64,000 bases of DNA, from contig JBBPZH010000018.1 in assembly GCA_038198965.1 (NCBI GenBank), positions 6,209 through 70,208 on the forward strand, in the 5' to 3' direction. The position numbers were made by a program, and so were the translations under genes. This DNA comes from Propionibacteriales bacterium (lineage in GTDB: Bacteria; Actinomycetota; Actinomycetes; Propionibacteriales; Nocardioidaceae). Shown here one piece after another: positions 3,143 to 61,591 of this stretch. The notes under the pieces were generated by a model. The model ran no database searches. It was not told the DNA's origin and saw nothing but the letters and a program-made list of their open reading frames with translations. Position 1 is the first letter of the stretch, and each line of letters begins with the position of its first letter.

Positions 3143-3144
3143 GA

Positions 3145-4536: not shown

Positions 4537-4657
4537 GGAACCACGCTACTCGTCCGAAAGGCAGCGGCCAGGTAACGGGAGTGACTGCAGTGGTGATCCA
4601 GGAGGTGCTGCGGGCGACACCCGCAGCGATCGCCGGGCACCGCGTAATGTGCACGAG

Positions 4658-6428: not shown

Positions 6429-8541
<2,113 letters not shown>

Positions 8542-9285: not shown

Positions 9286-9307
9286 CGACAAATCGATGGC
9301 GTCAGAT

Positions 9308-10327
9308 CTACGAGGACGCGTCTGTCGTCCCGGGGGGTGGCACGTCCGGACTGCCGTGGATCGGCTCCCATGCCTCCCACGCAGAGTCCACCATCTCGGC
9401 GAGGGTTTTGCTGCTCTCCCAGCCCATGACCTCGCGCATCCGGCTGACGTCGGCGACCAGCATGGCGGGGTCGCCCGGACGACGGTCGACCACGGGTGCG
9501 TCGACGGCGTACCCGGTGGTGGCAGCGATCTGGTCGAGCACCTCGGTGACCGAGGCCCCGGCGCCCGTACCGACGTTGAAGATGGTGTGCGGCCGCTCGT
9601 CGCGGTCGAGGTAGTCAAGTGTCGTCAGGTGCGCCTCTGCGAGATCCAAGATGTGCACGTAGTCGCGGATGCAGGTGCCGTCAGGGGTGTCGTAGTCGTC
9701 CCCGAACACCTTGGGTTGCTCGCCGGAGGTCAATGCCTGAAGTGCGATCGGGATGAGGTTGAGGACCGCCGGGTCGCCCAGCTCCGGCCAGCCGGAACCG
9801 GCGACGTTGAAGTAACGCAGCCCGGCCCAGCGCAGTCCCCACGCAGAAGCCGCGTCACGGCACATCCACTCACAGATCAGCTTGGTCTCGCCGTACGGAC
9901 TGATCGGGCGGCACGTCACCTCTTCATCGAGCAGCGTGCCGGCGGGCACGTCAGGCAGCCCGTACGTCGCCGCCGACGAGCTGAACATCAGCTTGCCCAC
10001 CTCGGCGGTCTCCATCGCCATCAGCAGGTTGGCCATCCCGCCGACGTTCTGGCGGAAGTACCACGCAGGCTTCTCTGCGGACTCACCGACCTGCTTCTTG
10101 GCAGCGATGTGTACGACCGCGCCGACGGCGTACTCGCGCATCATGGCGCTCAGCTTGTCCACTGCGTCGTCGGCGGCCAGGTCGATCTGCACCAGGGGTG
10201 CGTCGCTCACTCGAGACGGCGTACCGGTGCTGAGGTCGTCGGCGACGACGGTGTCTCCTCGCTCGCTGAGTAGGCGTACGACGTGGGCGCCGATGTAGCC
10301 GGCGCCGCCGGTGACGAGAACGCTCAT
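9308..10327 (-). CDS. galE: UDP-glucose 4-epimerase
   Basis: The internal Met at 10327 gives MSVLVTGGAGYIGAHVV...SSSAATYG...YGETK..., a short-chain epimerase. The upstream 41 codons of the ORF look non-coding. Confidence 0.9.
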   Translation of the reverse strand: MSVLVTGGAGYIGAHVVRLLSERGDTVVADDLSTGTPSRVSDAPLVQIDLAADDAVDKLSAMMREYAVGAVVHIAAKKQVGESAEKPAWYFRQNVGGMANLLMAMETAEVGKLMFSSSAATYGLPDVPAGTLLDEEVTCRPISPYGETKLICEWMCRDAASAWGLRWAGLRYFNVAGSGWPELGDPAVLNLIPIALQALTSGEQPKVFGDDYDTPDGTCIRDYVHILDLAEAHLTTLDYLDRDERPHTIFNVGTGAGASVTEVLDQIAATTGYAVDAPVVDRRPGDPAMLVADVSRMREVMGWESSKTLAEMVDSAWEAWEPIHGSPDVPPPGTTDASS

Positions 10328-12318: not shown

Positions 12319-13371
12319 TTACGCAAGGCGCCAGGCCATGCGGTCCGCGGCGACCCAGCCGGACCGGATGGCGTACGGGGCGGGTGGTGCTGCTGCGACG
12401 AGTCGGTGGCCGGTCGCCACAGTGCGGCAGCGCTCGACGAGTTGTCCGGCGGCGTACCAGGCTGTGGCTTCGGCGCCGGCACGTACGTCGACCTGCACGT
12501 TCCACACCCGTTGGTCGCCGCTGCCTTGGCGGTCGACCCTCAGCGCCAGGTCCTGGTCGGGCTCTGTCGCGAGGTGCTCGAACGGCACGTCCTCGTCTGC
12601 TGTCAGGCGCGGGAAGTGTGCCAATGCCACTGTGTCGGCTCGCAGCGCCGCTGCGGTCACCGCTTCGCGCGCGCCGAGGCCGAACAGGTCGGCTTCGGCG
12701 GCGCGCACGAGGGCTTTTGCCCCGCCGCCGGCCGTTCCCAACGGGAGAATAGCCGCGGCGAGCCCACGGACGACCGCTATCGGACATCCGGTCGCCTTGC
12801 CCTTCACCAAATCGGCTGCGCCCGCCACTTCGTCGGCGATGGCCGGCATGGTGACCTCGAGTCGGCGCCCGTACCCGTCAACTGCTCCGCGCAGGTCGCT
12901 GACCGCCGGCAGGCCGGCACAACCGATGGCTATGTCGGTCTGTCCCACGCGCCACGCTCGCCCCGCCGTGTCGGTGATGATGACCGCCACGTTGCGCCCG
13001 GTCGTCTCGGCGATTGTTGCGCGGAGGTCCGAAGCCATGGCGTCCGCGTCAACAGGCAGCAAGACCACAGTGCCGGGTGGCGTGTTCGACGCGTCGACCC
13101 CGGCGGCGGCCAGCACCAGTCCGTGCGAGGTCTCGCTGATCACGGTCTCACTCCGCCGGGCAACCACGCGAACGGTTTCGGCGTGCGTCCAAGCCTTACG
13201 AGTGCCGTTGACCACACGACCAGTCGCCTTGCTGACGACCTTGCTGGTGATGACGACGACATCTCCGTCTTGCAGCGTCGCAGTGTCGGCGAGCAATCGG
13301 CCGAGATCGTCACCTGCCTGCACCTCGGGCCAGCGCACGGCCTGGATCTGGAGTGCCGAGGGCGGCCTCAC
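12319..13371 (-). CDS. fbiB: coenzyme F420-0:L-glutamate ligase (CofE/FbiB N-domain) with a short unrecognised C-terminal tail
   Basis: GDVVVITSKVVSKATGR...AAGVDASN...VIITDTAGRAWRVGQTDIAIG...VKGK is the CofE core. The GTG at 13371 overlaps the cofD TGA (GTGA). Confidence 0.85.
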   Translation of the reverse strand: MRPPSALQIQAVRWPEVQAGDDLGRLLADTATLQDGDVVVITSKVVSKATGRVVNGTRKAWTHAETVRVVARRSETVISETSHGLVLAAAGVDASNTPPGTVVLLPVDADAMASDLRATIAETTGRNVAVIITDTAGRAWRVGQTDIAIGCAGLPAVSDLRGAVDGYGRRLEVTMPAIADEVAGAADLVKGKATGCPIAVVRGLAAAILPLGTAGGGAKALVRAAEADLFGLGAREAVTAAALRADTVALAHFPRLTADEDVPFEHLATEPDQDLALRVDRQGSGDQRVWNVQVDVRAGAEATAWYAAGQLVERCRTVATGHRLVAAAPPAPYAIRSGWVAADRMAWRLA

Positions 13372-14348
13372 CGGCGGGCTACGACGGTTTCCGCCAGCTT
13401 CAGGACGTTCCTGGCAAGTGCCTCGGAGGTGCCGGCGTCGCGCAGATACAGCGGGACGGCGCCTGCGGCCAGGCCAAGCTCGTCGAGCGCTGGCAGGGCT
13501 CCGGCATCTGACTCGTCCACCAGCCAAGCATCCAGCAAACCTCCTGATCGCCGACTGCCGTAGTGGCGACCGACCGCCGCAGCGCTGACTTCGACGCCGA
13601 TCACCGGAAGCAGCCGGTCGGCCATGCCTCGCACCGGTGCGCCCCTGATGATCGGCGACACCCCAACGGCCACCCCAGGCGCCGTACGAACGGCTTCGGC
13701 GATGCCCGGCACGGCCAAGATCGTGCCGATGGAGACCACCGGATTGGACGGCGCGAAGATGATCAGGTCGGCCTCGGCCAGCGCGTCCAGGACCCGCGGC
13801 CCCGGTGTCGACTCCTCGGCTCCGACCGCGACGACGGAGTGTGCCGCCGGAGCGTGCAGCCGCACCCAGTACTCCTGGAAGTGAAGCGCCCGCCGTTCAC
13901 CATCGGCGTCGTCGAGCACGACGTGCGTCTCGACCCGGTCATCCGTCATGGGCAGGAGCCGGACACCGGGCTGCCAGCGCTCGCACAGCGCCTCGGTCAC
14001 CGCCGACAGCGGATAGCCGGCCGCGAGCATCTGCGACCGCACGACGTGCGTCGCCAAGTCGCGGTCACCCAGCCCGAACCAAGCGGGCTCTACGCCGTAC
14101 GCCGCCAGCTCCTCCGCCGCGTGCCACGTCTCGTCACTTCGACCCCAGCCACGCTCGGCGTCGATGCCGCCGCCGAGGGTGTACATCACCGTGTCGAGGT
14201 CGGGACAGATCCGCAGCCCGAACAGCCAGATGTCGTCGGCGGTGTTGCCGATCACCGTGATCGTGTCCGTGTCCGGGTCGGTTGCGGCTCGCAACCCGAG
14301 CAGGAACCGGGCGCCACCGATGCCACCCGCGAGCACCGTGATCCGCAT
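13368..14348 (-). CDS. fbiA: 2-phospho-L-lactate (EPPG) transferase
   Basis: MRITVLAGGIGGARFLLGL...VIGNTADD...PSNPVVSIGTIL are CofD/FbiA motifs. Confidence 0.9.
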   Translation of the reverse strand: MRITVLAGGIGGARFLLGLRAATDPDTDTITVIGNTADDIWLFGLRICPDLDTVMYTLGGGIDAERGWGRSDETWHAAEELAAYGVEPAWFGLGDRDLATHVVRSQMLAAGYPLSAVTEALCERWQPGVRLLPMTDDRVETHVVLDDADGERRALHFQEYWVRLHAPAAHSVVAVGAEESTPGPRVLDALAEADLIIFAPSNPVVSIGTILAVPGIAEAVRTAPGVAVGVSPIIRGAPVRGMADRLLPVIGVEVSAAAVGRHYGSRRSGGLLDAWLVDESDAGALPALDELGLAAGAVPLYLRDAGTSEALARNVLKLAETVVARR

Positions 14349-33803: not shown

Positions 33804-34352
33804 TCACCCGAACTGGATGGCGGTGCAAAGCCAGCGCTCGCGGTGCAAGTCCAGCCGAGCGGCGATCGCTCGGGAGCGACCGCCCATCGTCACCCGAGCT
33901 GAGACCTCCGCGGTGCGGTCCGTCGGGTGGCACACGTGCACCGTGGCGACGTGCGGCCGAGCCGCCGACCGTGGAGCCCGTGGCCCCCGCTCGACGAGTC
34001 GTTGCCGGCGGGAGGCAATGTCGGCGTAGACGTTCTGGTCCGTCCACCGGATGAGTTGGGTCAACGGACGGTCGCTGGCGAGGACCTCCACTACCGCTTG
34101 CAAGAACCGCCCCGCCCAAGCCTCGGACTCCTGCAGTTGTGGGCTTGATGGGATACCCGGCTGCACGAGCGTCAACCCAGCAGCGTGAGGCTCACAGTCG
34201 ACGCCGCTCGCAAGCGGGTAAGTGAGCGCGAGCGCACCCTGGCTGTACGACGCGGACGGCGCCGACCCGGAGGCGAGCCCGTCGTGCGGCCAGGACCACG
34301 CAGTTCGAGCGCGCGCCGACGCGGGCATCGGTCGGTGTGCAGAACTGGTCAT
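33804..34352 (-). CDS. Rv3235-family protein
   Basis: The ATG at 34352 overlaps the upstream stop (ATGA). FLQAVVEVLASDRPLTQLIRWTDQNVYADI...ATVHVCHP...EVSARV is the pattern I associate with this secA-linked actinobacterial family. Confidence 0.65.
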   Translation of the reverse strand: MTSSAHRPMPASARARTAWSWPHDGLASGSAPSASYSQGALALTYPLASGVDCEPHAAGLTLVQPGIPSSPQLQESEAWAGRFLQAVVEVLASDRPLTQLIRWTDQNVYADIASRRQRLVERGPRAPRSAARPHVATVHVCHPTDRTAEVSARVTMGGRSRAIAARLDLHRERWLCTAIQFG

Positions 34353-35023
34353 GAGGCACCTCCGAGGTCGAGAAGTTGTTGGCCGGGATAAATCAGGTCG
34401 GGGTCGCCGCCGATCACCTGCCGGTTGGCCGCGTACAGCTCCCTCACGCGTGCCGCCACGGCGGCGGCTGGCGCATGCGGAGGCAGCGACCGGCTCGCGA
34501 TCGACCACAGGCTGTCGCCAGGTGCAACCGTGACGAACAACGCCGTCGGCCGGGAGCTGGGGAGGTCCGGCAGTGAAAGCCCGGCGACGGAGCTGGTTCC
34601 TGGCGGAGGGTGGCAGGTCGGGCATGCGGATGCAGCGCTACCCGCCGACGCGGCAGCCGGGAATGCGAGGGCGACGCCGCAGGCTGTCAAAACGACGCGG
34701 CGCAAAGCTCTTGGCGTGACCTTGACTGCTATCGCGTCGACGGCGGGTATAACCGAGACCAGGCAGGCGCCGATCACGTTGAGGGCGATGAGCAACGTGA
34801 AGAGTGCGAGCACTCCGACGTAACCAGCAGCAGCCACTGCTACCAGCAGTGAATCAGCAGTCCACCCCCCGGTTGGGTGCACGCCGTCGACGAGCTGCTG
34901 CCGCAGCTGGTACAGCGGCGCAGTCGCTGCCCAGACGGCTAGGCACGCAAGCAGACCGAACAGGGCGGTAAGGACTGACAAGCGCCCTAACCGGCACTTG
35001 CCGTCGTCGCCTGTGAGCCTCAC
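34349..35023 (-). CDS. LysM-domain membrane protein
   Basis: The GTG at 35023 is preceded by AAGGAG at 7-nt spacing. Three TM helices and a C-terminal LysM (VTVAPGDSLWSIA...LYAANRQVIGGDPDLIYPGQQL). Confidence 0.7.
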   Translation of the reverse strand: MRLTGDDGKCRLGRLSVLTALFGLLACLAVWAATAPLYQLRQQLVDGVHPTGGWTADSLLVAVAAAGYVGVLALFTLLIALNVIGACLVSVIPAVDAIAVKVTPRALRRVVLTACGVALAFPAAASAGSAASACPTCHPPPGTSSVAGLSLPDLPSSRPTALFVTVAPGDSLWSIASRSLPPHAPAAAVAARVRELYAANRQVIGGDPDLIYPGQQLLDLGGAS

Positions 35024-35062
35024 TCTCGGTCTCCTTTGGTTACGTTTGCTTCCCGGCACTGT

Positions 35063-35070
35063 CTAGTGCC
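35063..35070. repeat. 8-bp target-site duplication, left copy (CTAGTGCC)
   Basis: Identical 8-mers abut the outer ends of both inverted repeats (35063-35070 and 40149-40156). Confidence 0.85.
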
Positions 35071-35095
35071 GGCGATGTGTTACTTGACAAACCCA
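35071..35095. repeat. left terminal inverted repeat (IRL) GGCGATGTGTTACTTGACAAACCCA
   Basis: The reverse complement of 40124-40148 is GGTGATGTGTTACTTGACAAACCCA, which differs at one position. Confidence 0.9.
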
Positions 35096-35114
35096 TGAGC
35101 ACTAGGCTGCCGTT

Positions 35115-35837
35115 GTGGACTGGCGCGCGCATGGCCGTCGCACATGGGCTCTACTTTCCGCATGGAGCACTGTGGTGACGCTGGGTGGTGCTGCTGTGAT
35201 GACCGTGATCGCCCGGTCGTTGATTCGTTTGCCGTGGCCGTGGTTCGTCGTGCTCGGGGTGGGATTGGCGCTCATCGGGCTTGGCCTAATTCAAAGGGCT
35301 GGGGCGAACGCTGGATTCACAGTTCGGGCTTACAGTCATGCTCAGCTCTTGCGGCTAACGGTCACCAACACCGGGGCCACTTCTGACTTCGAAGCGACCG
35401 TCGTGAGCGTGGATGTTGTGGGACCGGGCGAGCGGAAACCTCCACCATTTCCTCAGTTTCAGCTCAAGTGGTCAGATCAGCCCGGCCGCCGATGCGAGAT
35501 ACCGTCCAAGGCGTCTCATGATCTAGAGGTCGCGCACGCGAATGGGTTTGAGACAGGGGACGACGCCAAACGCTACAGCGGCACCGTGACCTTCTCGCGA
35601 CCAAATGATGGCCAGCCCTACAACGCGCAACTGGGAGAACCGTTTGACGGGGATGAGATCACGATTACGGTGCGAGTGACCAGGATCCGGCCGGCTCGGT
35701 CACTGATTCGGAGTTACAACATTCGCTTCCGACCTACCGACCGTTTGCCGTACAAGGGTCAGGTCTGGCCAGTATTCCAGGGAGTCGATGGATCAGACGA
35801 GAATCGGAGTGCGCCACAGGACGTCGCCTCGTCGTAG
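35115..35837 (+). CDS. passenger orfA: hypothetical protein with two N-terminal TM helices
   Basis: WALLSAWSTVVTLGGAAVMTVIA and WFVVLGVGLALIGLGLI helices, then a beta-rich soluble region of about 170 aa. Ends 23 nt before the methyltransferase gene. The start (GTG 35115 or Met-29) is uncertain. Confidence 0.5.
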   Translation: MDWRAHGRRTWALLSAWSTVVTLGGAAVMTVIARSLIRLPWPWFVVLGVGLALIGLGLIQRAGANAGFTVRAYSHAQLLRLTVTNTGATSDFEATVVSVDVVGPGERKPPPFPQFQLKWSDQPGRRCEIPSKASHDLEVAHANGFETGDDAKRYSGTVTFSRPNDGQPYNAQLGEPFDGDEITITVRVTRIRPARSLIRSYNIRFRPTDRLPYKGQVWPVFQGVDGSDENRSAPQDVASS

Positions 35838-35860
35838 ATAGCCGTCAGTAGCATGTTCCC

Positions 35861-37501
35861 GTGACGGGTCCGAACCGGCTCTTTTACGGCGACAACCTCG
35901 ACGTGCTGCGCGAGCACGTCGCCACGGAATCGGTGGACCTGATCTATCTCGACCCGCCGTTCAACTCCAACCGCAACTACAACGTCATCTTCGCCCGGCG
36001 TGACGTGAAGCGCACCGACGATGACGCCGCGCAGATACAGGCGTTTGGTGACACATGGCACTGGACGCCGATCACCGGTGAGCAGTACCGCGACGCTGTT
36101 ACCGGTGGTCTACCGTCAGGAGCCGCCGACGCGCTGCGGGCGTTCCGCACCTTGCTCGGTGAGAACGACGCGATGGCGTACCTCGTCAACATGGCACCGC
36201 GACTGGTCGAACTGCACCGAGTCCTGAAGCCGACCGGCTCGCTGTACTTGCACTGCGATCCGACGATGAGCCACTACCTCAAGATTCTGCTCGACGCGAT
36301 CTTCGCTGCCGAGCACTTCGGAGGCGAAGTCATCTGGAAACGCACCACGGCACATAGCGACGCCAGACAGGGACGCAAGCTCTACGGTCGGGTCCACGAC
36401 GTCCTGCTCCTCTACACAAAGTCGGACGTGTGGACGTGGAACACGGTCCACGTTGGGTACGACGAGTCCTACATCGAGTCGCACTACCGGTTCGTTGATG
36501 AGGAGACGGGCCGCCGTTACCGGAAGGCCGACCTCACGGCAGCAAAGGGCGGCGGCGACACGAGTTACGAGTGGAAAGGGGTGCGCCCGTACAAGGGTCG
36601 GTTCTGGGCGTACAGCAAGGCCAACATGCAGCAGTTCGAGGATGAGGGCCGCCTGGTTTACACGCGGACTGGGATGCCGGAACTGAGGCGGTACCTCGAC
36701 GAGATGCCGGGCAACAGTCTTCAGGACATCTGGACAGACATTGACGCCATCAACCCGCGCGCCGCGGAACGACTCGGCTACCCGACGCAGAAGCCCCTGG
36801 CCCTGCTCGAACGCATCCTGACTGTCAGCAGCAACGAGGGCGACGTAGTGCTCGACCCGTTTTGCGGGTGCGGCACCACGATTGATGCGGCGCAACGGTT
36901 GGAGCGACGGTGGGTCGGTATCGACGTCACTTACATCGCTATCGACCTCATCAAGAAGCGGCTGGCGCACACCTACGGCGCAGACATCGCGAGCACCTAC
37001 GGAGTGGGCGGCATCCCGCGAGATGTTGGCTCCGCACAGGCCCTGTTCCAGCGGTCACCGTTTGACTTTGAGAGGTGGGCGGTGTCTCTTGTGAACGGTC
37101 AGCCGAACGAGAAACAGGTGGGCGACCGAGGCATCGACGGTGTCGTCGGATTCAACGTCGACACCAGGGGCAACATCGGGCGTGCCCTTGTCAGCGTCAA
37201 AGGCGGAAAGCAGATCGGTCCACAGTTTGTCCGTGACCTGCTCGGCACCGTCCAGACCCAAGCCGCCGAGATGGGTCTGCTCATCACGATGAACGAGCCG
37301 ACGAGAGGCATGATCGACGCAGCCGACCATGCGGGCACCTACTTATGGCCCGTCAACGCCGCGGTGTTCCCGAAAATTCAAATCCTCACAGTCCAGCAAC
37401 TACTCGACGGGCAGCGACCCAAGATGCCGCCCGCCTTACTGCCGTACATCGCCGCAAGACGCGGCGAGGCAGCATCGGCGCAGCTTGCTTTTGAGGTCTG
37501 A
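35861..37501 (+). CDS. passenger beta-class N6-adenine/N4-cytosine DNA methyltransferase fused to a C-terminal Mrr-like (PD-(D/E)xK) domain
   Basis: NRLFYGDNLDVL; motif IV DPPF (35951-35962) precedes motif I VLDPFCGCGTT (about 36850), which is the beta permutation. The C-terminal 160 aa contain DRGIDGVV...ALVSVKGGK, like Mrr GIDG...IQAK. Confidence 0.85.
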   Translation: MTGPNRLFYGDNLDVLREHVATESVDLIYLDPPFNSNRNYNVIFARRDVKRTDDDAAQIQAFGDTWHWTPITGEQYRDAVTGGLPSGAADALRAFRTLLGENDAMAYLVNMAPRLVELHRVLKPTGSLYLHCDPTMSHYLKILLDAIFAAEHFGGEVIWKRTTAHSDARQGRKLYGRVHDVLLLYTKSDVWTWNTVHVGYDESYIESHYRFVDEETGRRYRKADLTAAKGGGDTSYEWKGVRPYKGRFWAYSKANMQQFEDEGRLVYTRTGMPELRRYLDEMPGNSLQDIWTDIDAINPRAAERLGYPTQKPLALLERILTVSSNEGDVVLDPFCGCGTTIDAAQRLERRWVGIDVTYIAIDLIKKRLAHTYGADIASTYGVGGIPRDVGSAQALFQRSPFDFERWAVSLVNGQPNEKQVGDRGIDGVVGFNVDTRGNIGRALVSVKGGKQIGPQFVRDLLGTVQTQAAEMGLLITMNEPTRGMIDAADHAGTYLWPVNAAVFPKIQILTVQQLLDGQRPKMPPALLPYIAARRGEAASAQLAFEV

Positions 37502-37615
37502 CGGCGGCGTTGGGTGTGGAGCGCATATGGTGGGTCTTGGCAGCGCCCGACGGACAAGGCTGTTAGCCCGTAGCCAACCGGGATGGGAAGCGAGTGGTCG
37601 AGGCGCTGTCGCTTT

Positions 37616-37828
37616 TTACTTGAACGCCGCTGGCACTAGCTTGCGGGCCTCGGCTTCGCTGATGTCGTCCACCCAGTCGTTGTGACCGGCTACCGCATCC
37701 ATGATGAGCCGCGTTGGCTGCCACTTACCGTCTAGGAACGATTCGTCTACGAGTCCGCGCTCGTCTCGGGTTCGACGCAACAGCAGCGGCGGCTTGGGTT
37801 GCGTGTCGCTGTAGTACTGGATCGTCAT
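37616..37828 (-). CDS. passenger orfC: 70-aa hypothetical protein
   Basis: The ATG at 37828 overlaps the orfD TGA (ATGA), with GAGGAGGAG 6-8 nt upstream. MTIQYYSDTQPKPPLLLRRTRDERGLVDESFLDGKWQPT... Confidence 0.6.
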   Translation of the reverse strand: MTIQYYSDTQPKPPLLLRRTRDERGLVDESFLDGKWQPTRLIMDAVAGHNDWVDDISEAEARKLVPAAFK

Positions 37829-38064
37829 TCGTTGCTCCTCCTCGGCGGTTCGGTTGCGTCGCCCCAAACGCGTGTGTTCCATCGTGCATCCAGTTCATAG
37901 GAACGAATCGCTAGCCGGAGCCAGCCGCAGCCGAAGGCGCCGTAAGCGCAATGGAAGCCGTAGCAGCGATGCATGTCTTGGCAGCGGTAAAAGGTGGGTA
38001 TGCGGTCGAGCTGGCCGCAAGCCCACTCAATGGCGATCACAACCCACCGCTTCACGTGCGTCAT
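37825..38064 (-). CDS. passenger orfD: 79-aa Cys-rich hypothetical protein
   Basis: The ATG at 38064 has GGAGG 7 nt upstream. The sequence contains WACGQ...YRCQDMHRCYGFHCAYGAFGCGW (6 Cys). The stop overlaps the orfC start. Confidence 0.55.
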   Translation of the reverse strand: MTHVKRWVVIAIEWACGQLDRIPTFYRCQDMHRCYGFHCAYGAFGCGWLRLAIRSYELDARWNTRVWGDATEPPRRSNE

Positions 38065-38065
38065 G

Positions 38066-38257
38066 TCAAGCCTCCGTCGCCCGCGTTTCAACTGATCCAC
38101 TACCCTCAGCGGCCTTTGTGTCGTCCGGACGTTCTTGTTCATCGTCAACTGCGGGAGCGTCTGGATCAACCGCCAACAGTGCCCGCAAAGCCGCCTCAGG
38201 ATCGAGTGGCGCAAGCGATAGGCGTTCGGACCTTGAAGATTCCTTCTCGGTCGCCAC
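38066..38257 (-). CDS. passenger orfF: 63-aa acidic hypothetical protein
   Basis: The GTG at 38257 has AAGGAGG 6 nt upstream. The stop TGA ends 1 nt before the orfD ATG (TGAcATG). LSLAPLDPEAALRALLAVDPDAP... Confidence 0.55.
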   Translation of the reverse strand: MATEKESSRSERLSLAPLDPEAALRALLAVDPDAPAVDDEQERPDDTKAAEGSGSVETRATEA

Positions 38258-38284
38258 GACATTCCTCCTTCAACGTTGACCGAC

Positions 38285-38318
38285 ACGCGGATTTCCGCGT
38301 CCCCCGCGTCCCCGCGTC
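38285..38318. promoter_or_regulatory. operator-like repeat cluster between divergent orfF and orfE
   Basis: Palindrome ACGCGGatttCCGCGT (38285-38300). CCGCGTC is repeated directly at 38295, 38304 and 38312. The cluster sits 17-50 nt upstream of the orfE ATG. Confidence 0.35.
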
Positions 38319-38334
38319 CAGTAAGGTGAGCGTC

Positions 38335-38895
38335 ATGCTCACCCAACGCACGATCCAGGAAGCGCTTGCGCGGCTGGACGCTGAGATCGCTGCCGCTGAA
38401 GCGAAACTCCAAGACCTCCGCGTCAAGCGCCAAGGCGCAGACGCGTTTCTAGAGTACGCCGTGGGAGTGTTTGGCGGCGTACCGACCGATCTGCGCACGA
38501 AGGCCCCCGCCGCGCGGCGGACCGGAGTCAATACCGGGAACACCGCCTTGATTGAGGCCGCGGTACGTGCAACAGGAACCAGCACAGTCTCGGTTGAAGA
38601 TGTCGTTCAAGACGAGGGCGTGATAGCGGCTGGACTTGACCGGATGCAGGTACGCAACGGACTTCACTACCTGAGCCGAAAGGGACTCCTAGACAGCGCA
38701 GGGCGTCGAGGTCTATGGCGCCTGGCAAACGACCCAGACCTCACCGAGACTTCAGCAGGAGCGGAACTCTCGGTGCCACCGACAAGAGTGGAAGGGGGTG
38801 AAAACACCGATGATCCAACCAGTCACAATCGTGGTCACGACTTCTCCGGACGGAACCACGATAGTGACCATCTCGGTGCCGCCGTAGGCGCCTAG
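38335..38895 (+). CDS. passenger orfE: coiled-coil / putative winged-helix protein
   Basis: The ATG at 38335 follows AAGGTGAG. N-terminal coiled coil (EALARLDAEIAAAEAKLQDLRVKRQ) and a wHTH-like stretch (MQVRNGLHYLSRKGLLDSAGRRGLWRL). The last 45 codons or so are low-complexity, so the C-terminus is uncertain. Confidence 0.5.
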   Translation: MLTQRTIQEALARLDAEIAAAEAKLQDLRVKRQGADAFLEYAVGVFGGVPTDLRTKAPAARRTGVNTGNTALIEAAVRATGTSTVSVEDVVQDEGVIAAGLDRMQVRNGLHYLSRKGLLDSAGRRGLWRLANDPDLTETSAGAELSVPPTRVEGGENTDDPTSHNRGHDFSGRNHDSDHLGAAVGA

Positions 38896-38906
38896 ACGGT
38901 CAGGGC

Positions 38907-38942
38907 GCTTGCTGGTCATCGCATCAACGGCGACCAGCAAGC
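38907..38942 (+). terminator. 11-bp perfect stem-loop downstream of orfE
   Basis: GCTTGCTGGTC (38907-17) and GACCAGCAAGC (38932-42) with a 14-nt loop, starting 12 nt after the orfE stop. There is no clear U-tract. Confidence 0.35.
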
Positions 38943-38963
38943 AGCCCATCCGTTTCACACACA

Positions 38964-39031
38964 GGGCCTAGCACGGTGCCGGGTCGGTCTTGGCAGCCCA
39001 CCCCCGACGGGTTCGAATCCCGTTAGGTCCA
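38964..39031 (+). other. tRNA-like remnant (acceptor stem plus canonical T-arm; D/anticodon region too short)
   Basis: 5' GGGCCTA pairs with 3' TAGGTCC (with G3-U70). T-arm ACGGG-TTCGAAT-CCCGT. Only 36 nt lie between the acceptor and the T-arm, against about 41 expected, and no clean D-arm forms. Confidence 0.35.
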
Positions 39032-39108
39032 CGAACCGTGTGCTTGAACCTGCTAAGGCATGATACCGCCTGGGCTAACTCGCGGCACCTTCTCGGTGTG
39101 CCTGTGTG

Positions 39109-40101
39109 CTAGGCGTGTCGTTCCCGCTCGATGAGTGGCTTATACGACAGCCGCCGTCCTCCGGTCCTATCCATCAGCAGTTTCATGCGCTCAGAGTCGT
39201 TCATCTTGCGGGTGCTGTACCGATAGTCGAACTCGCCCAGGTAGCGGTGCAGGTGCTCAACGCTGACCGCGTGGTGCGTGCCGTCCACAGACCGCTTCAA
39301 CTGCGAGAAGTAGCCCTCCGCATGGTTCGTCGTAACGCCGTCACGCACGTACTCGTCGGCCTGGTGGACGACCGTTTCGTGGCCCTTCAGCTCCCCGCGC
39401 AGACTCTTGTATGCGCGAGCTTCGTCGGTGTGCAACGTCGTCTCAGCCAGATCAACATCGAGCGACAGTGCCTGGCGCAGCGTCTCCCCGGTGACGTTGG
39501 GGATCACCCGTGAACGAACCTCGCCCGACTCGGGGTGAACCAAGGCCAGGACGACCGTCTTGTCCGTCTGCACAACTTCCCACCGCTTGCGGGCTGGCCG
39601 CTTGTGCTTGGGCCGGTTGCTGGGCTTGCCACCGATCCACGTCTCATCCGCGATCACCGTGCCCGACAGGAGGCCGGCCAGTGGCTCCCGGCGCATCGCC
39701 TCACGGATGCGTTGGGTCATAAACCACGCCGACTTAGGCGTCAGATCGTACTTGCGCTCAATCTCCCGCGCCGCGACACCGTTCTTCGAGCTGCACATCT
39801 CGAACACGACCATGATCCACGTTCGGATGGGGACCTTCGTGCCGTGAAAGATCGTCCCGGTCAACACGGAGAACTGCTTGCGGCAGTCCTTGCATTTCCA
39901 CACCCGGCGATTCGAGATAGTGCCGGTGCGGGTCTTGCGGCCCTCCCCGCGAGGCTTCAAGAAGTAGTGCGCCGCTATCGACCCGCAGTGAGGGCACACG
40001 GGGCGACCGTTCCAACGGAGGTCTTCGAGCAGCTTGTAGGCGGCTTCCTCAGTTGGCACCTGCGCCATCAACGCGGGGATCGAGAACTGCTGCTTGGCCA
40101 T
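39109..40101 (-). CDS. IS1595-family (ISXO2-like) transposase
   Basis: N-terminal zinc ribbon CPHCGS...CKDCRKQFS, HTH region (GVAAREIERKYDLTPKSAWF), and a DDE domain (VIADETWIGG...HTDEARAYK...TNHAEGYFSQLKR). Confidence 0.9.
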   Translation of the reverse strand: MAKQQFSIPALMAQVPTEEAAYKLLEDLRWNGRPVCPHCGSIAAHYFLKPRGEGRKTRTGTISNRRVWKCKDCRKQFSVLTGTIFHGTKVPIRTWIMVVFEMCSSKNGVAAREIERKYDLTPKSAWFMTQRIREAMRREPLAGLLSGTVIADETWIGGKPSNRPKHKRPARKRWEVVQTDKTVVLALVHPESGEVRSRVIPNVTGETLRQALSLDVDLAETTLHTDEARAYKSLRGELKGHETVVHQADEYVRDGVTTNHAEGYFSQLKRSVDGTHHAVSVEHLHRYLGEFDYRYSTRKMNDSERMKLLMDRTGGRRLSYKPLIERERHA

Positions 40102-40107
40102 ACCGAA

Positions 40108-40135
40108 AGTCTACGCCGAACTGTGGGTTTGTCAA
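40108..40135 (-). promoter_or_regulatory. candidate transposase promoter inside IRR giving a leaderless mRNA
   Basis: On the minus strand: TTGACA (40135-40130), a 16-nt spacer, TAGACT (40113-40108), then 6 nt and the ATG at 40101. There is no SD, consistent with a leaderless transcript. Confidence 0.4.
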
Positions 40136-40148
40136 GTAACACATCACC
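40124..40148. repeat. right terminal inverted repeat (IRR)
   Basis: TGGGTTTGTCAAGTAACACATCACC is the reverse complement of IRL with one mismatch. Confidence 0.9.
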
Positions 40149-40156
40149 CTAGTGCC
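40149..40156. repeat. 8-bp target-site duplication, right copy (CTAGTGCC)
   Basis: Identical to 35063-35070. Confidence 0.85.
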
Positions 40157-40263
40157 ACCGAGTGACTGCCGTCAAGGTCTTCTCCACAGGCCACCGGAGA
40201 CTTGCGACCTGTCAACCCGGCTCCCTTGGCGGGGGTTCTGGCAGACGGCTACGTTCTTGGCAC

Positions 40264-40812
40264 ATGCGTTGGGACCGGCTCTTCACCGATCTCGAGGGAC
40301 AGGCTCGGGCTCTCGAAGAAGCGGAGCGGGAAGCCGAAATCGTGGAACGCGTGCGCGTGGAGTTCGGTCAGACAACGCTGGTTGATCGGCTGCGCGCGCA
40401 GGAAGGCGCAAACATCACGGTGGCCGTTGACGGCGTCGGCCAGGTGAGCGGTGCGCTCGTGCAGATTGGCGCGGACTGGCTGTTGTTGCGGACGCCGTCA
40501 GAAGTCATCGTGCCGGTTGCGGCAATCACGGCTGTCCCAGATCTGCCGCCTGCTGCGATCAGCCCCGACGGTGGGTCGATGGTGTCCAGGCGGCTGCGTC
40601 TCACAACGGTTCTTCGAGCCGTCGCCATGGACCGTTGCGCGGTGAGAGTCGCGCTGCGCAACGGCAGCAGCTTCACGGGTACGCCTGACCGGGTGGGATT
40701 CGACTTCGTCGACGTGGCGTTGCACGACCTGGATGAGGCTCCACGGCGATCCACCGTGCGCGGAAGATCCACGGTGGCCTTCGCTGCCTTGGCATCCGTG
40801 CAACGGCGCTGA
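40264..40812 (+). CDS. conserved hypothetical protein
   Basis: MRWDRLFTDLEGQARALEEAEREAEIVERVRVEFGQTTLVDRL... with good codon periodicity. No family recognised. The ORF-track start at 40162 is probably too early. Confidence 0.55.
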   Translation: MRWDRLFTDLEGQARALEEAEREAEIVERVRVEFGQTTLVDRLRAQEGANITVAVDGVGQVSGALVQIGADWLLLRTPSEVIVPVAAITAVPDLPPAAISPDGGSMVSRRLRLTTVLRAVAMDRCAVRVALRNGSSFTGTPDRVGFDFVDVALHDLDEAPRRSTVRGRSTVAFAALASVQRR

Positions 40813-40818
40813 CCGGGG

Positions 40819-41100
40819 CTAGTCGAGGACGGATTGACCGTCAGTGACGACCTCCGTCGGTTGCCCCGGCGACTCATCAGCGGCGAACGGATGGTCGCTG
40901 ATGTACTGCTTGGTCGACTGGTACGCCGTTCGGATGTACTCCTCCAGCTCGGCAGCCTCAACCCGCCACACGCCTCGGCCGCCGATCTTGATTGCCGGCA
41001 GGTCACCGCGACGCACGAGCGCATATGCCTGCTTGAGGGAGATGTTGAGGATGTCCGCGACAGCACCGAGGTCGTAGAACCGAGGCGGGGAGCCGGCCAT
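40819..41100 (-). CDS. excisionase/MerR-type helix-turn-helix DNA-binding protein
   Basis: MAGSPPRFYDLGAVADILNISLKQAYALVRRGDLPAIKIGGRGVWRVEAAELEEYI. Only the last 93 codons of the 432-aa ORF look real. Confidence 0.75.
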   Translation of the reverse strand: MAGSPPRFYDLGAVADILNISLKQAYALVRRGDLPAIKIGGRGVWRVEAAELEEYIRTAYQSTKQYISDHPFAADESPGQPTEVVTDGQSVLD

Positions 41101-41193
41101 GGTGGGATTGTCGCACGCAGTATCACCCGGTCCGGGGTCTCGTCGTCGAGCTCCTGTGGACAAGTCTTCCCACAGTGGTGCACTCCCGGCACA

Positions 41194-41907
41194 ATGGCCG
41201 CCGTGTCCTTGCGGTCGCGGTCGCCCTCGTCGCAGCGCAGTGCTGCGCAGCGCGGTGACGACGGTGAGCACGACACCACACCGTCGTCGCCGCAGGCGCT
41301 GAGAGTACGCCGGTCCCGTTGGCGCGACCCGCGGCTCTGGTTCGGCGTACTGCTGGTGCTTGCCGCCGTCGTCGTCGGCGCGAAGGTGCTCGCCGCGGCC
41401 GACAACACTGTTCCGGTCTGGGCTCTCGACCATCCGGCGAGTGCCGGGATGGCGATCACCCAGGCCGACGTCCGAGCCATCAGGGTTCACTTCTCCGGCT
41501 CGGGGAACGAGAACCTCTACTGGCTCGCTGATCAAGCGTTGCCGTCGCCTGCCTACCTGACCCGAGACGTCGGCACCGGCGAGTTGTTGGCCCGCTCTGC
41601 GCTGACAACCGACCAAACCGTGGTCCCGCACGAGCTGCCGTTGGCTGTGGCAGCTGCCGGAGCGCCCGCTGGCCTGGCCCCAGGCGATCATGTGGAGGTG
41701 TGGGCTGTGCCTCCAGCACAGGACGTCCGGGGTCACGCCCAACTCGTGCTCTCCGATACAGCGGTGCTCTCGGTCGGTACGGCGGCGGTGACCGGCGTGG
41801 CAGCGGATCGCCAGTTCGTCGTCGCCCTGCCTGACGGCGCCGACACGTCGTCGCTCCTCGACAAGCTCAACGGATCCACTGTCGTTCTGGTACGGATCGG
41901 TGGCTGA
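41194..41907 (+). CDS. SAF-domain protein (CpaB/RcpC-like)
   Basis: One TM helix (WFGVLLVLAAVVVGAKVL), then a SAF-like region (ITQADVRAIRV...) and a beta-clip C-terminus. Located upstream of the CpaE-like ATPase. Confidence 0.65.
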   Translation: MAAVSLRSRSPSSQRSAAQRGDDGEHDTTPSSPQALRVRRSRWRDPRLWFGVLLVLAAVVVGAKVLAAADNTVPVWALDHPASAGMAITQADVRAIRVHFSGSGNENLYWLADQALPSPAYLTRDVGTGELLARSALTTDQTVVPHELPLAVAAAGAPAGLAPGDHVEVWAVPPAQDVRGHAQLVLSDTAVLSVGTAAVTGVAADRQFVVALPDGADTSSLLDKLNGSTVVLVRIGG

Positions 41908-43167
41908 GTGATGGCTACCAGCGTGCTCGTTGCAGTCGGCGGCGCCAGCTTCGAGGCGGAGCTGCTCGACGCCCTTGACAAGCCGTCCTTCCAGGTCGTC
42001 CGGCGGTGCGTCGACGTCCCAGACCTGCTCACCGCAGCGGACCTCCAAACGGCTCAGGTCGCCGTGGTGTCGGCGCACCTGCGCAGCCTCGACCGGTCGG
42101 TCGTCGCACGTCTGCACGACGATGGCGTGACGGTGGTCGGAGCAACGGCAGAGACATCCAGCGCCGACGAGGCTGCGTTGCGACGGCTCGGAGTGCAGCT
42201 GTTCGTGTCGCCTGACGACGTCGCGACGTTGGCGGAGATCTTGGAATCGGCGGCGTCGGGCTCCGCCGGACAGGACCAGTCGACGTACGACGACACGGCG
42301 GCCGAGCCGCCGGCGCTCAACGCGCCCACCGTGGTCGGCCGCCTGATCGCAGTGTGGGGAGGCGCCGGAGCACCCGGGCGCTCGGTGGTCGCGATGGGGC
42401 TGAGTGCTGAGCTGGCCAGGCGGCGCCTGGACACGATCCTCGTCGATGCAGATGTGTACGGCGGAGCCAGCGCCGCGTTGCTGGGTCTCATCGACGAATC
42501 GTCCGGGTTGCTAGCGGCGGCCCGCGCTGCCAACGTCGGGACACTGGACCTGCCCACGCTGGCGCACCACGCTCGCACGGTCAGCCCCCACCTGCGTGTC
42601 TTGACCGGTCTGCCCCGTGCCGACCGCTGGACCGAGCTCAAGCCAGCCCTCATTCGTGAAGTCCTGGCGACCTGTCGGGCGCTGGCAGCATTTACCGTCG
42701 TGGACTGCGGCTTCAGCCTCGAGACCGACGAGGAGATCAGTTACGACGTTGGGGCTCCACGTCGAAACGGAGCGACCCTGGAAGTGCTGCAGGAAGCAGA
42801 CCTGGTCGTCGTGGTCGGGGCCGCCGACCCGCTGGGCCTCGGCAGGCTCATTCGGGCACTGCACGAACTGTCCACTGCGGTGCCGGCCGTCACCGCTCAT
42901 GTCGTGATCAACCGCGTTCGCGACACCTTGGGCTGGTCCGAAGCCGACATCACCGCGACGGTGACCCGTGCGACCGGGCTCGACGGCATCTCTACGCTGC
43001 CCGAGGACCGGCATGCGTGCGACAAGGCCATGGTCCACGGCCGGACCCTGTCAGAGGCGGCACCGGACGCAAGGCTGACAAGGTCGCTGGGCGCGCTCGC
43101 GGCCCAACTCGCCGGTTTGCCTGACAGCGCCCGGCGACGAGGCGCGAGCCGTTTCGTGCGGCGCTGA
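41908..43167 (+). CDS. CpaE/TadZ/Ssd-like ParA-MinD family ATPase with an N-terminal receiver-like domain
   Basis: Deviant Walker A VWGGAGAPGRSVVAMGLS, ILVDADVYGG. The N-terminal 120 aa or so resemble a pseudo-receiver. Confidence 0.75.
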   Translation: MMATSVLVAVGGASFEAELLDALDKPSFQVVRRCVDVPDLLTAADLQTAQVAVVSAHLRSLDRSVVARLHDDGVTVVGATAETSSADEAALRRLGVQLFVSPDDVATLAEILESAASGSAGQDQSTYDDTAAEPPALNAPTVVGRLIAVWGGAGAPGRSVVAMGLSAELARRRLDTILVDADVYGGASAALLGLIDESSGLLAAARAANVGTLDLPTLAHHARTVSPHLRVLTGLPRADRWTELKPALIREVLATCRALAAFTVVDCGFSLETDEEISYDVGAPRRNGATLEVLQEADLVVVVGAADPLGLGRLIRALHELSTAVPAVTAHVVINRVRDTLGWSEADITATVTRATGLDGISTLPEDRHACDKAMVHGRTLSEAAPDARLTRSLGALAAQLAGLPDSARRRGASRFVRR

Positions 43168-43311
43168 ACCGGCGTTGGGCGACCTTGACGTCACCCACCC
43201 CGACGGAACCCCCGGTCGCAGCCAGCACCAGGGCGCCGCCGCCGCCTACCACGGCGGGTGGCCGCCACAGCCTTGCTAGCGTGAGACCAGGCACATCATG
43301 AGGGAGGCGCC

Positions 43312-44262
43312 GTGCAGGCGATCTGGAAGGGCACAATCTCGTTCGGCCTGGTGACGATCCCGATCAAGGTCTACTCAGCGACCGAGGAACGCAACGTGTC
43401 GTTCCGGCAGGTGCACGAGGCCGACGGCGGGCGCATCCGCTACAAGCGGGTGTGCGAGGCGGACGGTGAGGAGGTGCCGTACTCCGACATCGGCAAGGCG
43501 TACGAGCTGCCCGACGGGCGGCTTGTTGTCCTCACCGACGAAGACTTCAGCGAGTTGCCGCTACCTACGGCCAAGTCGATCGAAGTCCTGGAGTTCGTGC
43601 CAGCGGAGCAGGTCGACCCCCTCTACTTCTCAAAGGCGTACTACCTGGCGGCCGACGGCGTCGGCGTCAAGCCCTACGTGCTGCTTCGCGACGCGCTCTC
43701 GCGCACCGGCCAGTGCGCTTTGGTCAAGGTGGCGATCCGCACCCGTGAGACGCTGGCCCTCCTGCGGGAAAAGGACGGGGCCTTGGTTCTCCAGACCATG
43801 CTGTGGCCGGAGGAGGTGCGCAGCAGTGACTTCGCCGTACCTGACGACTCGGTGGAGATCCGCAAGCAAGAAGTCGGCATGGCGGAGTCCTACATCTCGA
43901 CGCTGTCGGGCGACTTCGATCCCACTCGTTACTCCAGCGACTACCGCGAGGCACTCGAGCAGCTGGTGCAGGCAAAGGCCTCTGGACTGCCGATGCCGGA
44001 GACTGCCACCGACGAGCCGCAAACCGCCCAGGTGGTCGACCTGGTCGCCGCGTTGCGGGCCAGTGTCGACGCTGCCAAGCGCCGCCGCGAAGGAGTGGCT
44101 GCCGAAGTCGCTGACGCCGCCACGGGAACTGACGGAGCGGCCGCTCCCAAGCCGGCGGCGAAGTCACCGAGCAAGCGTTCGGCGAAGCCCGCGACGGCGA
44201 AGGACGGCGCGAAGAGCACCAAGGCTGCTGCGAAGAAGTCGACAGCCAAGAAGTCCGCGTAG
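43312..44262 (+). CDS. ku: NHEJ DNA end-binding protein Ku
   Basis: VQAIWKGTISFGLVTIPIKVYSATE...VSFRQVH...GRIRYKRVC; Lys/Ala-rich basic tail. GGGAGG lies 5 nt upstream of the GTG. Confidence 0.9.
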   Translation: MQAIWKGTISFGLVTIPIKVYSATEERNVSFRQVHEADGGRIRYKRVCEADGEEVPYSDIGKAYELPDGRLVVLTDEDFSELPLPTAKSIEVLEFVPAEQVDPLYFSKAYYLAADGVGVKPYVLLRDALSRTGQCALVKVAIRTRETLALLREKDGALVLQTMLWPEEVRSSDFAVPDDSVEIRKQEVGMAESYISTLSGDFDPTRYSSDYREALEQLVQAKASGLPMPETATDEPQTAQVVDLVAALRASVDAAKRRREGVAAEVADAATGTDGAAAPKPAAKSPSKRSAKPATAKDGAKSTKAAAKKSTAKKSA

Positions 44263-61218: not shown

Positions 61219-61591
61219 GGGGCTGAACGGTTTCGACTTTGGTCGTTGCAACCAAGAGAAGCGAGCCGAGGATCCAAGGTCAACTCGTAAACGATCCCTT
61301 GGAAAACCAATAAGTGCCAACGCAAAGCGCACTGACTTCGCCCTCGCCGCCTGAGGCGACTAGGTGAAGGGTCGGTCTGGAACTGCCTCCGGTCCAGTAA
61401 CCGGCCTCACTGAGGAGGCTTGCTGTTGATCCCTGGTCGCTGGGGATCGGCGGGACTTCATCAGCGGCTGAGCCCGTCGGCGATGTGTCTGCTCAAGCGC
61501 CGGGGCTGAGAAAAGCGTCATGCAGACTGCGCTCGGAGAAGGCTTGGTTCAGCGTCAGAGGACCCGGGTTCGATTCCCGGCAGCTCCACCA
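61219..61591 (+). ncRNA. ssrA: transfer-messenger RNA (tmRNA)
   Basis: 5' GGGGCTGAACGGTTTCGAC; tag reading frame GCC AAC GCA AAG CGC ACT GAC TTC GCC CTC GCC GCC TGA (61316-61354), giving ANAKRTDFALAA; 3' GGACCCGGGTTCGATTCCCGGCAGCTCCACCA. Located directly downstream of smpB. Confidence 0.95.

Follow-up and report, generated by a model that had tools for sequence, protein, structure and literature searches.

What is the 5.1-kb segment that lies between two inverted repeats at positions 35071-40148 of a 64-kb stretch of Propionibacteriales bacterium DNA (contig JBBPZH010000018.1; the whole 64,000 nucleotides are referred to as the window), and do the genes inside it belong together? The original prediction had read the segment as an IS1595-family transposon carrying a six-gene defence or epigenetic module. 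The evidence presented here indicates that the segment is very probably one complete transporter insertion sequence (IS) of the IS1595 family, inserted as a unit with duplication of an 8-bp target. Compared with its relatives the element appears to be two-layered, with an accessory core conserved in its clade (transposase, a tRNA-like gene, a coiled-coil/winged helix-turn-helix (wHTH) protein and orf63, a small acidic protein) and a slot for swappable genes between orf63 and the repeat distal to the transposase.

Ends, target duplication and transposase

Direct reading of the window confirmed that the same 8-mer, CTAGTGCC, abuts both outer ends of the segment (Table 1), a coincidence expected by chance about once in 65,536. 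The 25-nt inverted repeats were found at the predicted coordinates with 24 of 25 positions matching, and they are the only two copies in the 64 kb when up to three mismatches are allowed (0.00 expected, 100 shuffles). The G+C content of the element is 61.7% as compared to 66.9% for the remainder, which makes it the lowest 5.08-kb stretch within the window, and two earlier hand counts (32/60 inside, 41/60 outside) proved exact. The right junction is also present in an independent Logan assembly (L001), which is 100% identical to window positions 38695-43419. By analogy with the IS1595 family, the DDE transposase would bind both 25-nt ends and move all DNA between them.

The complete 330-aa transposase with a zinc ribbon and a DDE domain was recovered by both Pfam (Zn_ribbon_IS1595, PF12760, 3e-16, residues 16-76; DDE_Tnp_IS1595, PF12762, 6e-35) and NCBIfam (transpos_IS1595, NF033547, 7e-50). 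In an alignment of 21 sequences (the window transposase and 20 homologs) residues D152, D226, E262 and K269/R270 were invariant and the zinc-ribbon cysteines C36, C39, C70 and C73 were conserved. More than 5,597 homologs were found at E<=1e-30, the nearest being 78% identical. A scan of genome contigs with the transposase gave 9 loci, all at <=60% identity and with no close copy among them, and the matches in a plasmid collection were at most 40% identical and therefore outside the clade of the window element. The spacing of the DDE-K residues and the GGnnAT ends appear to resemble those of ISNwi1, one of the ISfinder subgroups of the family (ISPna2, ISH4, IS1016, IS1595, ISSod11, ISNwi1 and ISNha5). 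Members of the IS1595 family generate 8-bp duplications and have a single transposase with a zinc finger and a DDE domain, the zinc finger being present in all groups except IS1016 (PMC8101967), and transporter IS with passenger genes are documented (PMC3129680; PMC11891212, with reference to Siguier et al. 2009). Both family traits named in the original prediction are thus published, and their match to the window element leaves the reading as an IS1595 transposon well supported.

A promoter-like site precedes the transposase gene, its -10 box ending 7 nt before the ATG, and this site was the sole match of a consensus scan within the element. The TTGACA of its -35 box is kept in the terminal repeat of nearly all relatives. 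The transposase would be expressed from this putative promoter and, given that the -35 box lies inside the element's own inverted repeat, autoregulation would be possible.

Conserved core and variable slot

DNA around relatives of the transposase was taken from genomes, metagenomes and viral contigs, and 18 related elements from other genomes were found to have a common terminal repeat core, GG[TG]GATGTGT[GT]ACTTGACAAACCC in most of them and with few mismatches in some. The transposases of the relatives with this core are 52-74% identical, and most of these relatives carry the core at both ends. Duplications of 8 bp at differing sites were found in 12 related elements (11 clade members and L089) and, given element lengths of 1.5-4.1 kb, these are cargo-carrying ("transporter") IS, which is a known kind. 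The hosts of the clade are mostly uncultured Actinomycetota and Acidimicrobiia. L089 represents a deeper IS1595 lineage, with a transposase 38% identical to that of the window, and its cargo is a member of the same methylase/inactive-nuclease family as in the window (48% identical), convergent with the transposase; this methylase type has therefore been captured either repeatedly or long ago.

Clade members were also found in IMG/VR viral contigs (L108-L111), and L099 (6953-10748) lies within a prophage-like region beside a phage integrase and tail genes. In L012 and L011 (3866-3920) a tandem pair of ~20-nt repeats is located just outside the transposase-proximal repeat.

The division into core and slot emerges from what the relatives carry. 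The orf63 gene, the wHTH gene and the tRNA-like sequence occur with very different cargo or with none, so the proposed six-gene module did not hold up: these three items belong to the clade core, and only the part from 35096 to ~38160, with the open reading frame (ORF) for a protein with two transmembrane segments (2-TM), the methylase, orf70 and orf79, is variable. In the closest relative, L102 (GCA_020064085.1), an alpha/beta hydrolase gene lies between orf63 and the distal repeat. The same methylase family as in the window was found in the slots of L012, L011, L108 and L089 as well as adjoining L096, and other slots contained a distant N6_N4 + Mrr_cat methylase (L100), a C5 methylase with an HNH endonuclease (L099), a SocA/Panacea toxin-antitoxin pair (L095), a HicB-like protein (L096) and an M78 peptidase (L093).

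Positions 2206-4193 of L102 and 38160-40148 of the window are 80.7% identical at the DNA level, and this identity is mosaic, with 88-99% over the accessory module (38194-39091) and 48-82% over the transposase. Modules have therefore been exchanged between clade members, and the alignment implies that the probable breakpoints are near the tRNA-like gene and inside orf63.

ORFs similar to orf63 were seen in most relatives checked (L012, L011, L006, L007, L002, L093, L095, L096 with two, L097, L099, L100, L102, L108, L109 and L111) and not in L003. The consensus of these proteins reads DERVSLAPLDPEEALRALLAVDPD, with an acidic tail after it. Among 1.84 billion proteins 26 representatives of the family were found at E<1e-3, of which 25 are 45-110 aa and one is 154 aa long; no match was obtained in Pfam, NCBIfam, PHROGs or PADLOC. 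Just upstream of the methylase in L089 there is a possible orf63 analogue with a basic tail (DRFKSAMKAIVKVPKS).

The wHTH fold was reproduced in an AlphaFold2 model, with a helix at residues 2-46 and the wHTH domain at residues 69-130 (predicted local distance difference test 81-89). Foldseek returned winged helices of the MarR, IclR, Fur and ArsR types, every match with E>1e-3, and the searches in Pfam, NCBIfam, PHROGs and PADLOC gave only a sub-threshold match to AbiEi_4. At the same position L102 encodes a protein of 91% identity and L100 one detected by BLAST at E=0.001, and the proteins of L012, L093, L097 and L108 at this position are of similar architecture as judged from reading their translations. 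The control region between the divergent orf63 and wHTH genes is 92% identical to its counterpart in L102, and the repeat noticed there earlier is indeed present. The wHTH protein would probably regulate the divergent orf63 and wHTH promoters by binding to the palindrome TCAACGTTGA and the GCGTCCC repeats as putative operators.

The predicted fusion of a methyltransferase with an Mrr-like fold was recognised in the slot protein by Pfam (N6_N4_Mtase, 9e-39; NA-iREase1, 8e-10; Mrr_cat, 1e-6). Motif IV (DPPF) is ahead of motif I (DPFCGCGTT), and the closest solved structures are those of type III Mod, CcrM, DpnA and M.RsrI. At the position of the nuclease motif, S445-V446-K447 is invariant in 22 homologs. 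Active Mrr enzymes have (E/Q)xK at the catalytic position, and given that S replaces the catalytic E/Q the Mrr-like fold is probably inactive and could serve as a DNA-binding module. NA-iREase1, to which it also matches, is itself a family classed as inactive. The possibility that the methylase is an obligatory partner of the IS was ruled out, as an IS1595 transposase was found at 1 of 80 metagenome methylase loci (L089), where the methylases are 45-60% identical.

The tRNA-like gene

What had been described as a tRNA-like remnant is tRNA-like and not a remnant, being a conserved, structured and covarying gene of 67-70 nt in 12 elements. In the window it is encoded on the strand opposite to the transposase gene, ~75 nt past the stop codon of the latter, and closely follows the wHTH gene with its hairpin. 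In most relatives the homolog is likewise just 3' of the transposase gene on the opposite strand; in L093, L095 and L109 it is ~1.1-1.3 kb beyond, the L095 copy being on the transposase strand. The transposases of the elements that share this position are only 56-68% identical, with the exception of one relative at 72%. A covariance model (R1) was built from eight of the sequences, including the window copy, which as a training member scored 76.8 bits, and the non-training members scored 63.8 (L102), 64.9 (L108), 36.1 (L109) and 34.4 bits (L111); L108, L109 and L111 had been obtained independently, by searching for the repeat pattern. L096, L003, L004 and L007 do not have the tRNA-like gene.

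When eight sequences were aligned with MAFFT, the acceptor stem (7 bp) and the T stem (5 bp) were paired in every one, as compared to 40-54% pairing in slid controls, and both stems are 100% paired in 12/12 elements. Compensatory double changes were found at four acceptor pairs and three T-stem pairs, with acceptor pairs 4-7 covarying. The pairs G1-C72, G2-C71 and G3.U70 are invariant (12/12) and A73 is present in 11/12. When the sequences were folded one by one, the D arm was reduced to ~3 bp with GG retained, and the window copy gave a 3-bp mini D arm and an 8-bp anticodon-like stem with the loop CUUGGCA. The middle arm is extended to 6-8 bp, its loop always contains UUGG or CUGG, and CCA is mostly not encoded. 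In the MAFFT and the model-fitted alignments the anticodon arm is 54-57% paired (out of register) and its support comes from per-sequence folding, so covariation is claimed for the acceptor and T stems alone.

ARAGORN with default settings made no call on the window copy. No Rfam family fits and no tRNA match was obtained at E<=1 in 7 kb; an Rfam search of 141 nt alone gave weak partial tRNA matches. The combination that defines a canonical tRNA (a cloverleaf accepted by detectors such as ARAGORN and Rfam RF00005, with a D arm of ordinary size, an anticodon stem of 5 bp and a loop of 7 nt) was not found in the window copy. At the same place ARAGORN calls tRNA-Pro(TGG) in L006 (11031-11104) and L099 (8042-8125), of which that of L006 has G3.U70 and that of L099 does not.

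At the sequence level the window copy has the features of an alanine acceptor, i.e. G3.U70 in a 7-bp acceptor stem and A73, which together form the identity set of alanyl-tRNA synthetase (AlaRS) (PMC5389508, PMC10543346). In yeast, G3:U70 in tRNA-Pro(UGG) leads to alanylation and Pro-to-Ala mistranslation (Hoffman et al. 2017, PMC5389508). An RNA from the minus strand would have a C.A mismatch in place of the invariant G.U, so selection acts on the RNA of the plus strand, and this RNA would be made on the same strand as the wHTH gene. Given that the acceptor/T-arm minihelix is kept together with G3.U70 and A73, the RNA is probably processed like a tRNA and is predicted to be a possible substrate for charging by AlaRS. 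We therefore suggest tentatively, as a proposal that is rather more likely to fail than to hold, that the clade core carries a trans-acting tRNA-like RNA with the AlaRS identity set (G1-C72, G2-C71, G3.U70, A73) and a proline-type UGG loop. If such an RNA is processed and alanylated in vivo, it could act as a tRNA mimic through which the mobile element modulates or subverts translation in its host (e.g. by Pro-to-Ala mistranslation or frameshifting); alternatively it might act as a decoy for tRNA-targeting factors or as a regulator of transposition.

Two other explanations of the sequence were considered. An attachment-site scar of an integrase was ruled out by the covarying conservation at the same place and by there being no integrase present. 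A bidirectional terminator is insufficient as an explanation, since the invariant G.U implies selection on the plus-strand RNA.

In L008 (10978-12948), from a Dehalococcoidia metagenome-assembled genome, the opposite strand past a distant IS1595 transposase (37% identical; element boundaries undefined) encodes two unusual tRNAs, called by ARAGORN as a tRNA with a 4-nt anticodon and a tRNA-Ala(AGC), and two tRNA-like sequences of 66-67 nt with reduced D arms. One of these tRNA-likes has G3.U70 and another has the linker GCAGGTTTGCC in common with L095. The window also contains a transfer-messenger RNA (tmRNA) gene (61219-61591, +; tag peptide ANAKRTDFALAA, ARAGORN) that is unrelated to the element and whose 3' tRNA-like domain gave a weak 19-bit match to model R1.

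Table 1. Features of the window element, and tRNA-like genes, lengths and target duplications of related elements. GC3, G+C content at third codon positions.
Locus	Feature	Position	Strand	Remarks
Window	Target-site duplication, left copy	35063..35070	.	CTAGTGCC, by direct reading the same as 40149-40156
Window	Terminal inverted repeat, cargo end, distal to transposase	35071..35095	+	GGCGATGTGTTACTTGACAAACCCA
Window	2-TM protein, 240-aa ORF	35115..35837	+	Two N-terminal hydrophobic segments; start codon uncertain
Window	Methylase, 546 aa	35861..37501	+	Beta-class amino-methyltransferase (N6-adenine or N4-cytosine) with C-terminal Mrr-like fold
Window	Second tRNA-like copy, truncated	37512..37555	+	5' part up to start of T stem; just 3' of methylase
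Window	orf70, 70 aa	37616..37828	-	Start overlaps orf79 stop (ATGA); exact protein gene-called in NCBI record; GC3 0.76
Window	orf79, 79 aa, Cys-rich	37825..38064	-	Starts 1 nt after orf63 stop (TGA 1 nt before ATG)
Window	orf63, small acidic protein	38066..38257	-	Motif ERLSLAPLDPEAALRALLAVDPDA; GTG start with AAGGAGG ahead
Window	Divergent control region orf63/wHTH	38258..38334	.	10-nt palindrome TCAACGTTGA (38270-38279); CCGCGTCCC x2.9 (38295-38319)
Window	wHTH protein, 186 aa	38335..38895	+	N-terminal long helix, wHTH domain, disordered tail
Window	Hairpin	38896..38953	+	22-nt arms, 77% complementary; directly past wHTH stop codon
Window	tRNA-like gene	38964..39031	+	7-bp acceptor stem with G3.U70, discriminator A, T arm GGGTTCGAATCCC
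Window	IS1595-family transposase, 330 aa	39109..40101	-	Single ORF, zinc ribbon and DDE (Pfam, NCBIfam)
Window	Promoter-like site for transposase	40108..40135	-	-35 TTGACA within inverted repeat, 16-nt spacer, -10 TAGACT
Window	Terminal inverted repeat, transposase-adjacent	40124..40148	-	24/25 match to other end
Window	Target-site duplication, right copy	40149..40156	.	CTAGTGCC; junction also in independent assembly L001
Window	Reconstructed empty site			...GGCACTGTCTAGTGCCACCGAGTG...
L102	tRNA-like gene	3007-3075		Element 3.04 kb, duplication GGATAACG
L097	tRNA-like gene	1942-2009		Element 2.56 kb, duplication GGCATAGA
L093	tRNA-like gene	7984-8052		Element 3.08 kb, duplication GCAGCTGC
L095	tRNA-like gene	9272-9340		Element 3.39 kb, duplication GGTAAACG/GATAAACG (7/8)
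L100	tRNA-like gene	4136-4204		Element 3.8 kb, duplication GTTGTTTT
L002	tRNA-like gene	2403-2471		Element 3.48 kb, duplication ACGTGGGT
L109	tRNA-like gene	9918-9984		Element 3.24 kb, duplication AATGCCAC
L011	tRNA-like gene	2693-2759
L012	tRNA-like gene	12503-12571
L108	tRNA-like gene	2549-2616
L111	tRNA-like gene	2280-2349
L099	Related element			3.8 kb, duplication TGAAATTC
L003	Related element			2.5 kb, duplication GCGCGACT
L006	Related element			2.85 kb, duplication AGAAGATC
L007	Related element			1.48 kb, duplication ACTTGAAC
L089	Related element	2592-6672		4.08 kb, repeats GGCAATAACTTACTTG... 22/24, duplication CTAGTTTC

Age, origin and function weighed against known systems

The insertion is intergenic, ahead of a LysM/DUF6459 operon and close to secA. 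Elements of the clade lie directly upstream of a DUF6459 gene in the window (33804-35070), L095 (10346-10946), L096 (283-1572) and L097 (3350-4007), and adjacency to DUF6459 was seen for the window element and for 3 of the 5 relatives with the closest transposases whose flanks were examined. The LysM gene precedes DUF6459 in the window and L096, and secA is near in the window as well as in L097. A near-palindrome, GGCACTGTCTAGTGCC (35047-35070), contains the target site, 4 nt upstream of the LysM GTG start (35059). The insertion must have displaced the LysM promoter.

Such a shared neighbourhood could mean that the insertion is old and that the element is a vertically inherited, resident or domesticated one, and the SecA proteins of the window and L097 are about as similar (69%) as the two transposases (68%), with a single copy of the element in the 64-kb window. 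An old insertion is nevertheless unlikely given that the duplications differ between genomes (CTAGTGCC, GGCATAGA and GGTAAACG), that the element in L096 has the opposite orientation, that the insertion points vary, lying 4-130 nt ahead of different genes, that the accessory module is still 88-99% identical to that of L102 at an unrelated locus and that the G+C content is still 5 points under that of the host. The differing duplications and positions together with the L096 orientation point to independent and probably fairly recent insertions with an apparent regional preference. Regional targeting is to our knowledge not a known trait of the IS1595 family, and the several insertions beside the DUF6459 locus are a hint of it. 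A separate issue is whether the 5.1-kb unit arose by fusion of two clade members, i.e. a ~2-kb L102-like core and the methylase part of a second element, with recombination or deletion removing the internal ends before the whole unit transposed once. The truncated second copy of the tRNA-like gene just 3' of the methylase (a direct repeat with 38982-39008 in local alignment, below the threshold of model R1) is possibly a recombination scar, and the 11-mer GTCTTGGCAGC from the anticodon-like loop region, which occurs three times in the 64-kb window (37534, 37975 and 38987, +), always inside the element and at 37975 on the antisense strand of orf79, could be either a binding site or the scar of a recombination event. 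These repeats suggest that pieces of the core could act as recombination anchors for cargo shuffling, and the tRNA-like RNA may also be a homology anchor for cargo swapping. The mosaic identity to L102 fits a fusion as well, and L096 is a presumed intermediate in which a repeat-bounded transposase module without duplication is followed by a second orf63-like gene and a methylase; on the other side, no internal repeat remnant with <=3 mismatches was found in the window, and the perfect outer duplication shows that all 5.1 kb moved together in the most recent event. We regard a fusion as a real possibility that falls somewhat short of an even chance, and it concerns the origin of the unit only, being compatible with the reading as one complete transporter IS. 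A 1.1-kb IS combined with a solo repeat was ruled out, as there is no internal degenerate repeat downstream of the transposase (<=3 mismatches) and the outer duplication speaks against it.

The genes of the variable slot could also be taken as the essential part, with the methylase, the 2-TM protein, orf70, orf79 and perhaps orf63 and the wHTH protein together forming a coherent new system, either for anti-phage defence or epigenetic, with the IS as its vehicle. The slots of relatives do contain defence-type genes (the C5 methylase with HNH, the Panacea toxin-antitoxin pair and the HicB-like protein), a close methylase homolog is located near an AAA_15/AAA_21 ATPase, and the three small ORFs are coupled as predicted, orf79 and orf70 translationally and in the manner of a toxin-antitoxin pair; yet PADLOC gave only generic MTase_II/III and orphan-methylase models for the methylase and nothing for the other five proteins. 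Neither a methylase with an active nuclease nor the full gene set of a named PADLOC system was found, and S stands in place of E/Q in the Mrr-like motif in 22/22 homologs. The 2-TM protein (so labelled from reading its translation; GC3 just 0.66), orf70 and orf79 had no family match in Pfam, NCBIfam, PHROGs or PADLOC and no relatives in the plasmid collection or in ~110 fetched loci, which include six other IS-linked methylase loci and ~80 methylase-family loci. When co-occurrence was examined independently of the IS, the methylase recurred without these three genes in L012, L108 and L089, the incomplete L011 and L096 likewise show none of them, and its closest homologs (L105-L107, 72-77%) have no transposase, repeat, orf63, 2-TM, orf70 or orf79 nearby. 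Finally, orf63 and the wHTH gene accompany the IS regardless of cargo. A coherent defence system is therefore very unlikely, and we conclude that the cargo is an orphan methylase with unrelated small genes that form no named or coherent defence system. With no partner nuclease the methylase is orphan or protective rather than part of a restriction system, and most likely it would just methylate host DNA at its own motif.

Several observations weigh against a single complete and mobile transporter IS. The left junction is supported by a single assembly, and the search for further copies gave none in the 64-kb window and, with the exact transposase sequence, only the same genome (L001, 100% identical), the nearest other transposase being the one at 78% identity. 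Two relatives, L012 and L096, have no target duplication; in L012 the repeats (9881-9930 and 13636-13698) extend to 44 nt, and in L096 an internal repeat parts a 2.27-kb transposase module (1572-3838) from orf57 and the methylase (3913-5750), irregularities which mean that some large elements may be two-unit fusions. Of 10 window proteins looked up by exact sequence, 7 are on record (SecA included) and 3 are not, and at 90% identity the recorded ones are singletons or, for one flank protein, a two-member cluster. Within 90% protein identity the host is thus without a relative that could show an empty site. The methylase has a putative activity and motif, the wHTH protein a putative operator and the tRNA-like gene a predicted transcript. 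The perfect duplication and the intact transposase and repeats make it plausible that the element inserted recently and is probably still mobile.

As a plain cargo-carrying IS1595 the element is ordinary, being another example of an IS that shades into a transposon and transports a methylase. It has in common with other IS1595 transporters the zinc-ribbon and DDE transposase, the short repeats starting with GG, the 8-bp duplication and passengers downstream of the transposase. ISNwi1 and ISNha5 are among the IS1595 groups with passengers that Siguier, Gagnevin and Chandler reportedly described in 2009. In the literature searched, the example given of an IS1595 passenger is a regulator of transcription, whereas methylases are mentioned as passengers of another family, IS1380 (PMC11891212). 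The methylase itself resembles orphan beta-class enzymes (CcrM, M.RsrI, DpnA, type III Mod) in its N6_N4_Mtase domain and in having motif IV before motif I, whereas it differs from them in being fused to a NA-iREase1/Mrr_cat fold with SxK and in having no Res or restriction partner. That the slot repeatedly acquired DNA methylases, toxin-antitoxin genes and genes of similar kinds makes the clade a compact vehicle for epigenetic and defence-type genes in uncultured Actinomycetota.

A full-text literature search on tRNA-like sequences in insertion sequences found no description of the clade-wide accessory core with its tRNA-like gene, wHTH protein and orf63, nor of a conserved covarying tRNA-like gene in any DDE insertion sequence. 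The RNA shares G1-C72, G2-C71, G3.U70, A73 and a canonical T arm with tRNA-Ala and with the tRNA-like domain of tmRNA, and like tmRNA it has a strongly reduced D arm that keeps GG. It differs from these in having no mRNA-like part, in its UGG loop, which is not an alanine anticodon, in the arm extended to 6-8 bp and in being rejected by ARAGORN and the Rfam tRNA and tmRNA models. Another parallel is the mistranslating tRNA-Pro(UGG) with G3:U70 selected in yeast (PMC5389508), with which it shares the UGG loop and the AlaRS identity pair, and in L006 also a full cloverleaf; in contrast, the D arm is minimal in most IS copies, the anticodon stem is longer, the loops measure 7-10 nt and position 37 is C or A. 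The odd D arm, the long stem, the loops and position 37 appear to argue against ordinary decoding and make a role on the ribosome doubtful. Set beside these systems, what is new lies at the level of the clade: a fixed accessory core with an alanine-identity tRNA-like gene, combined with a swappable slot.

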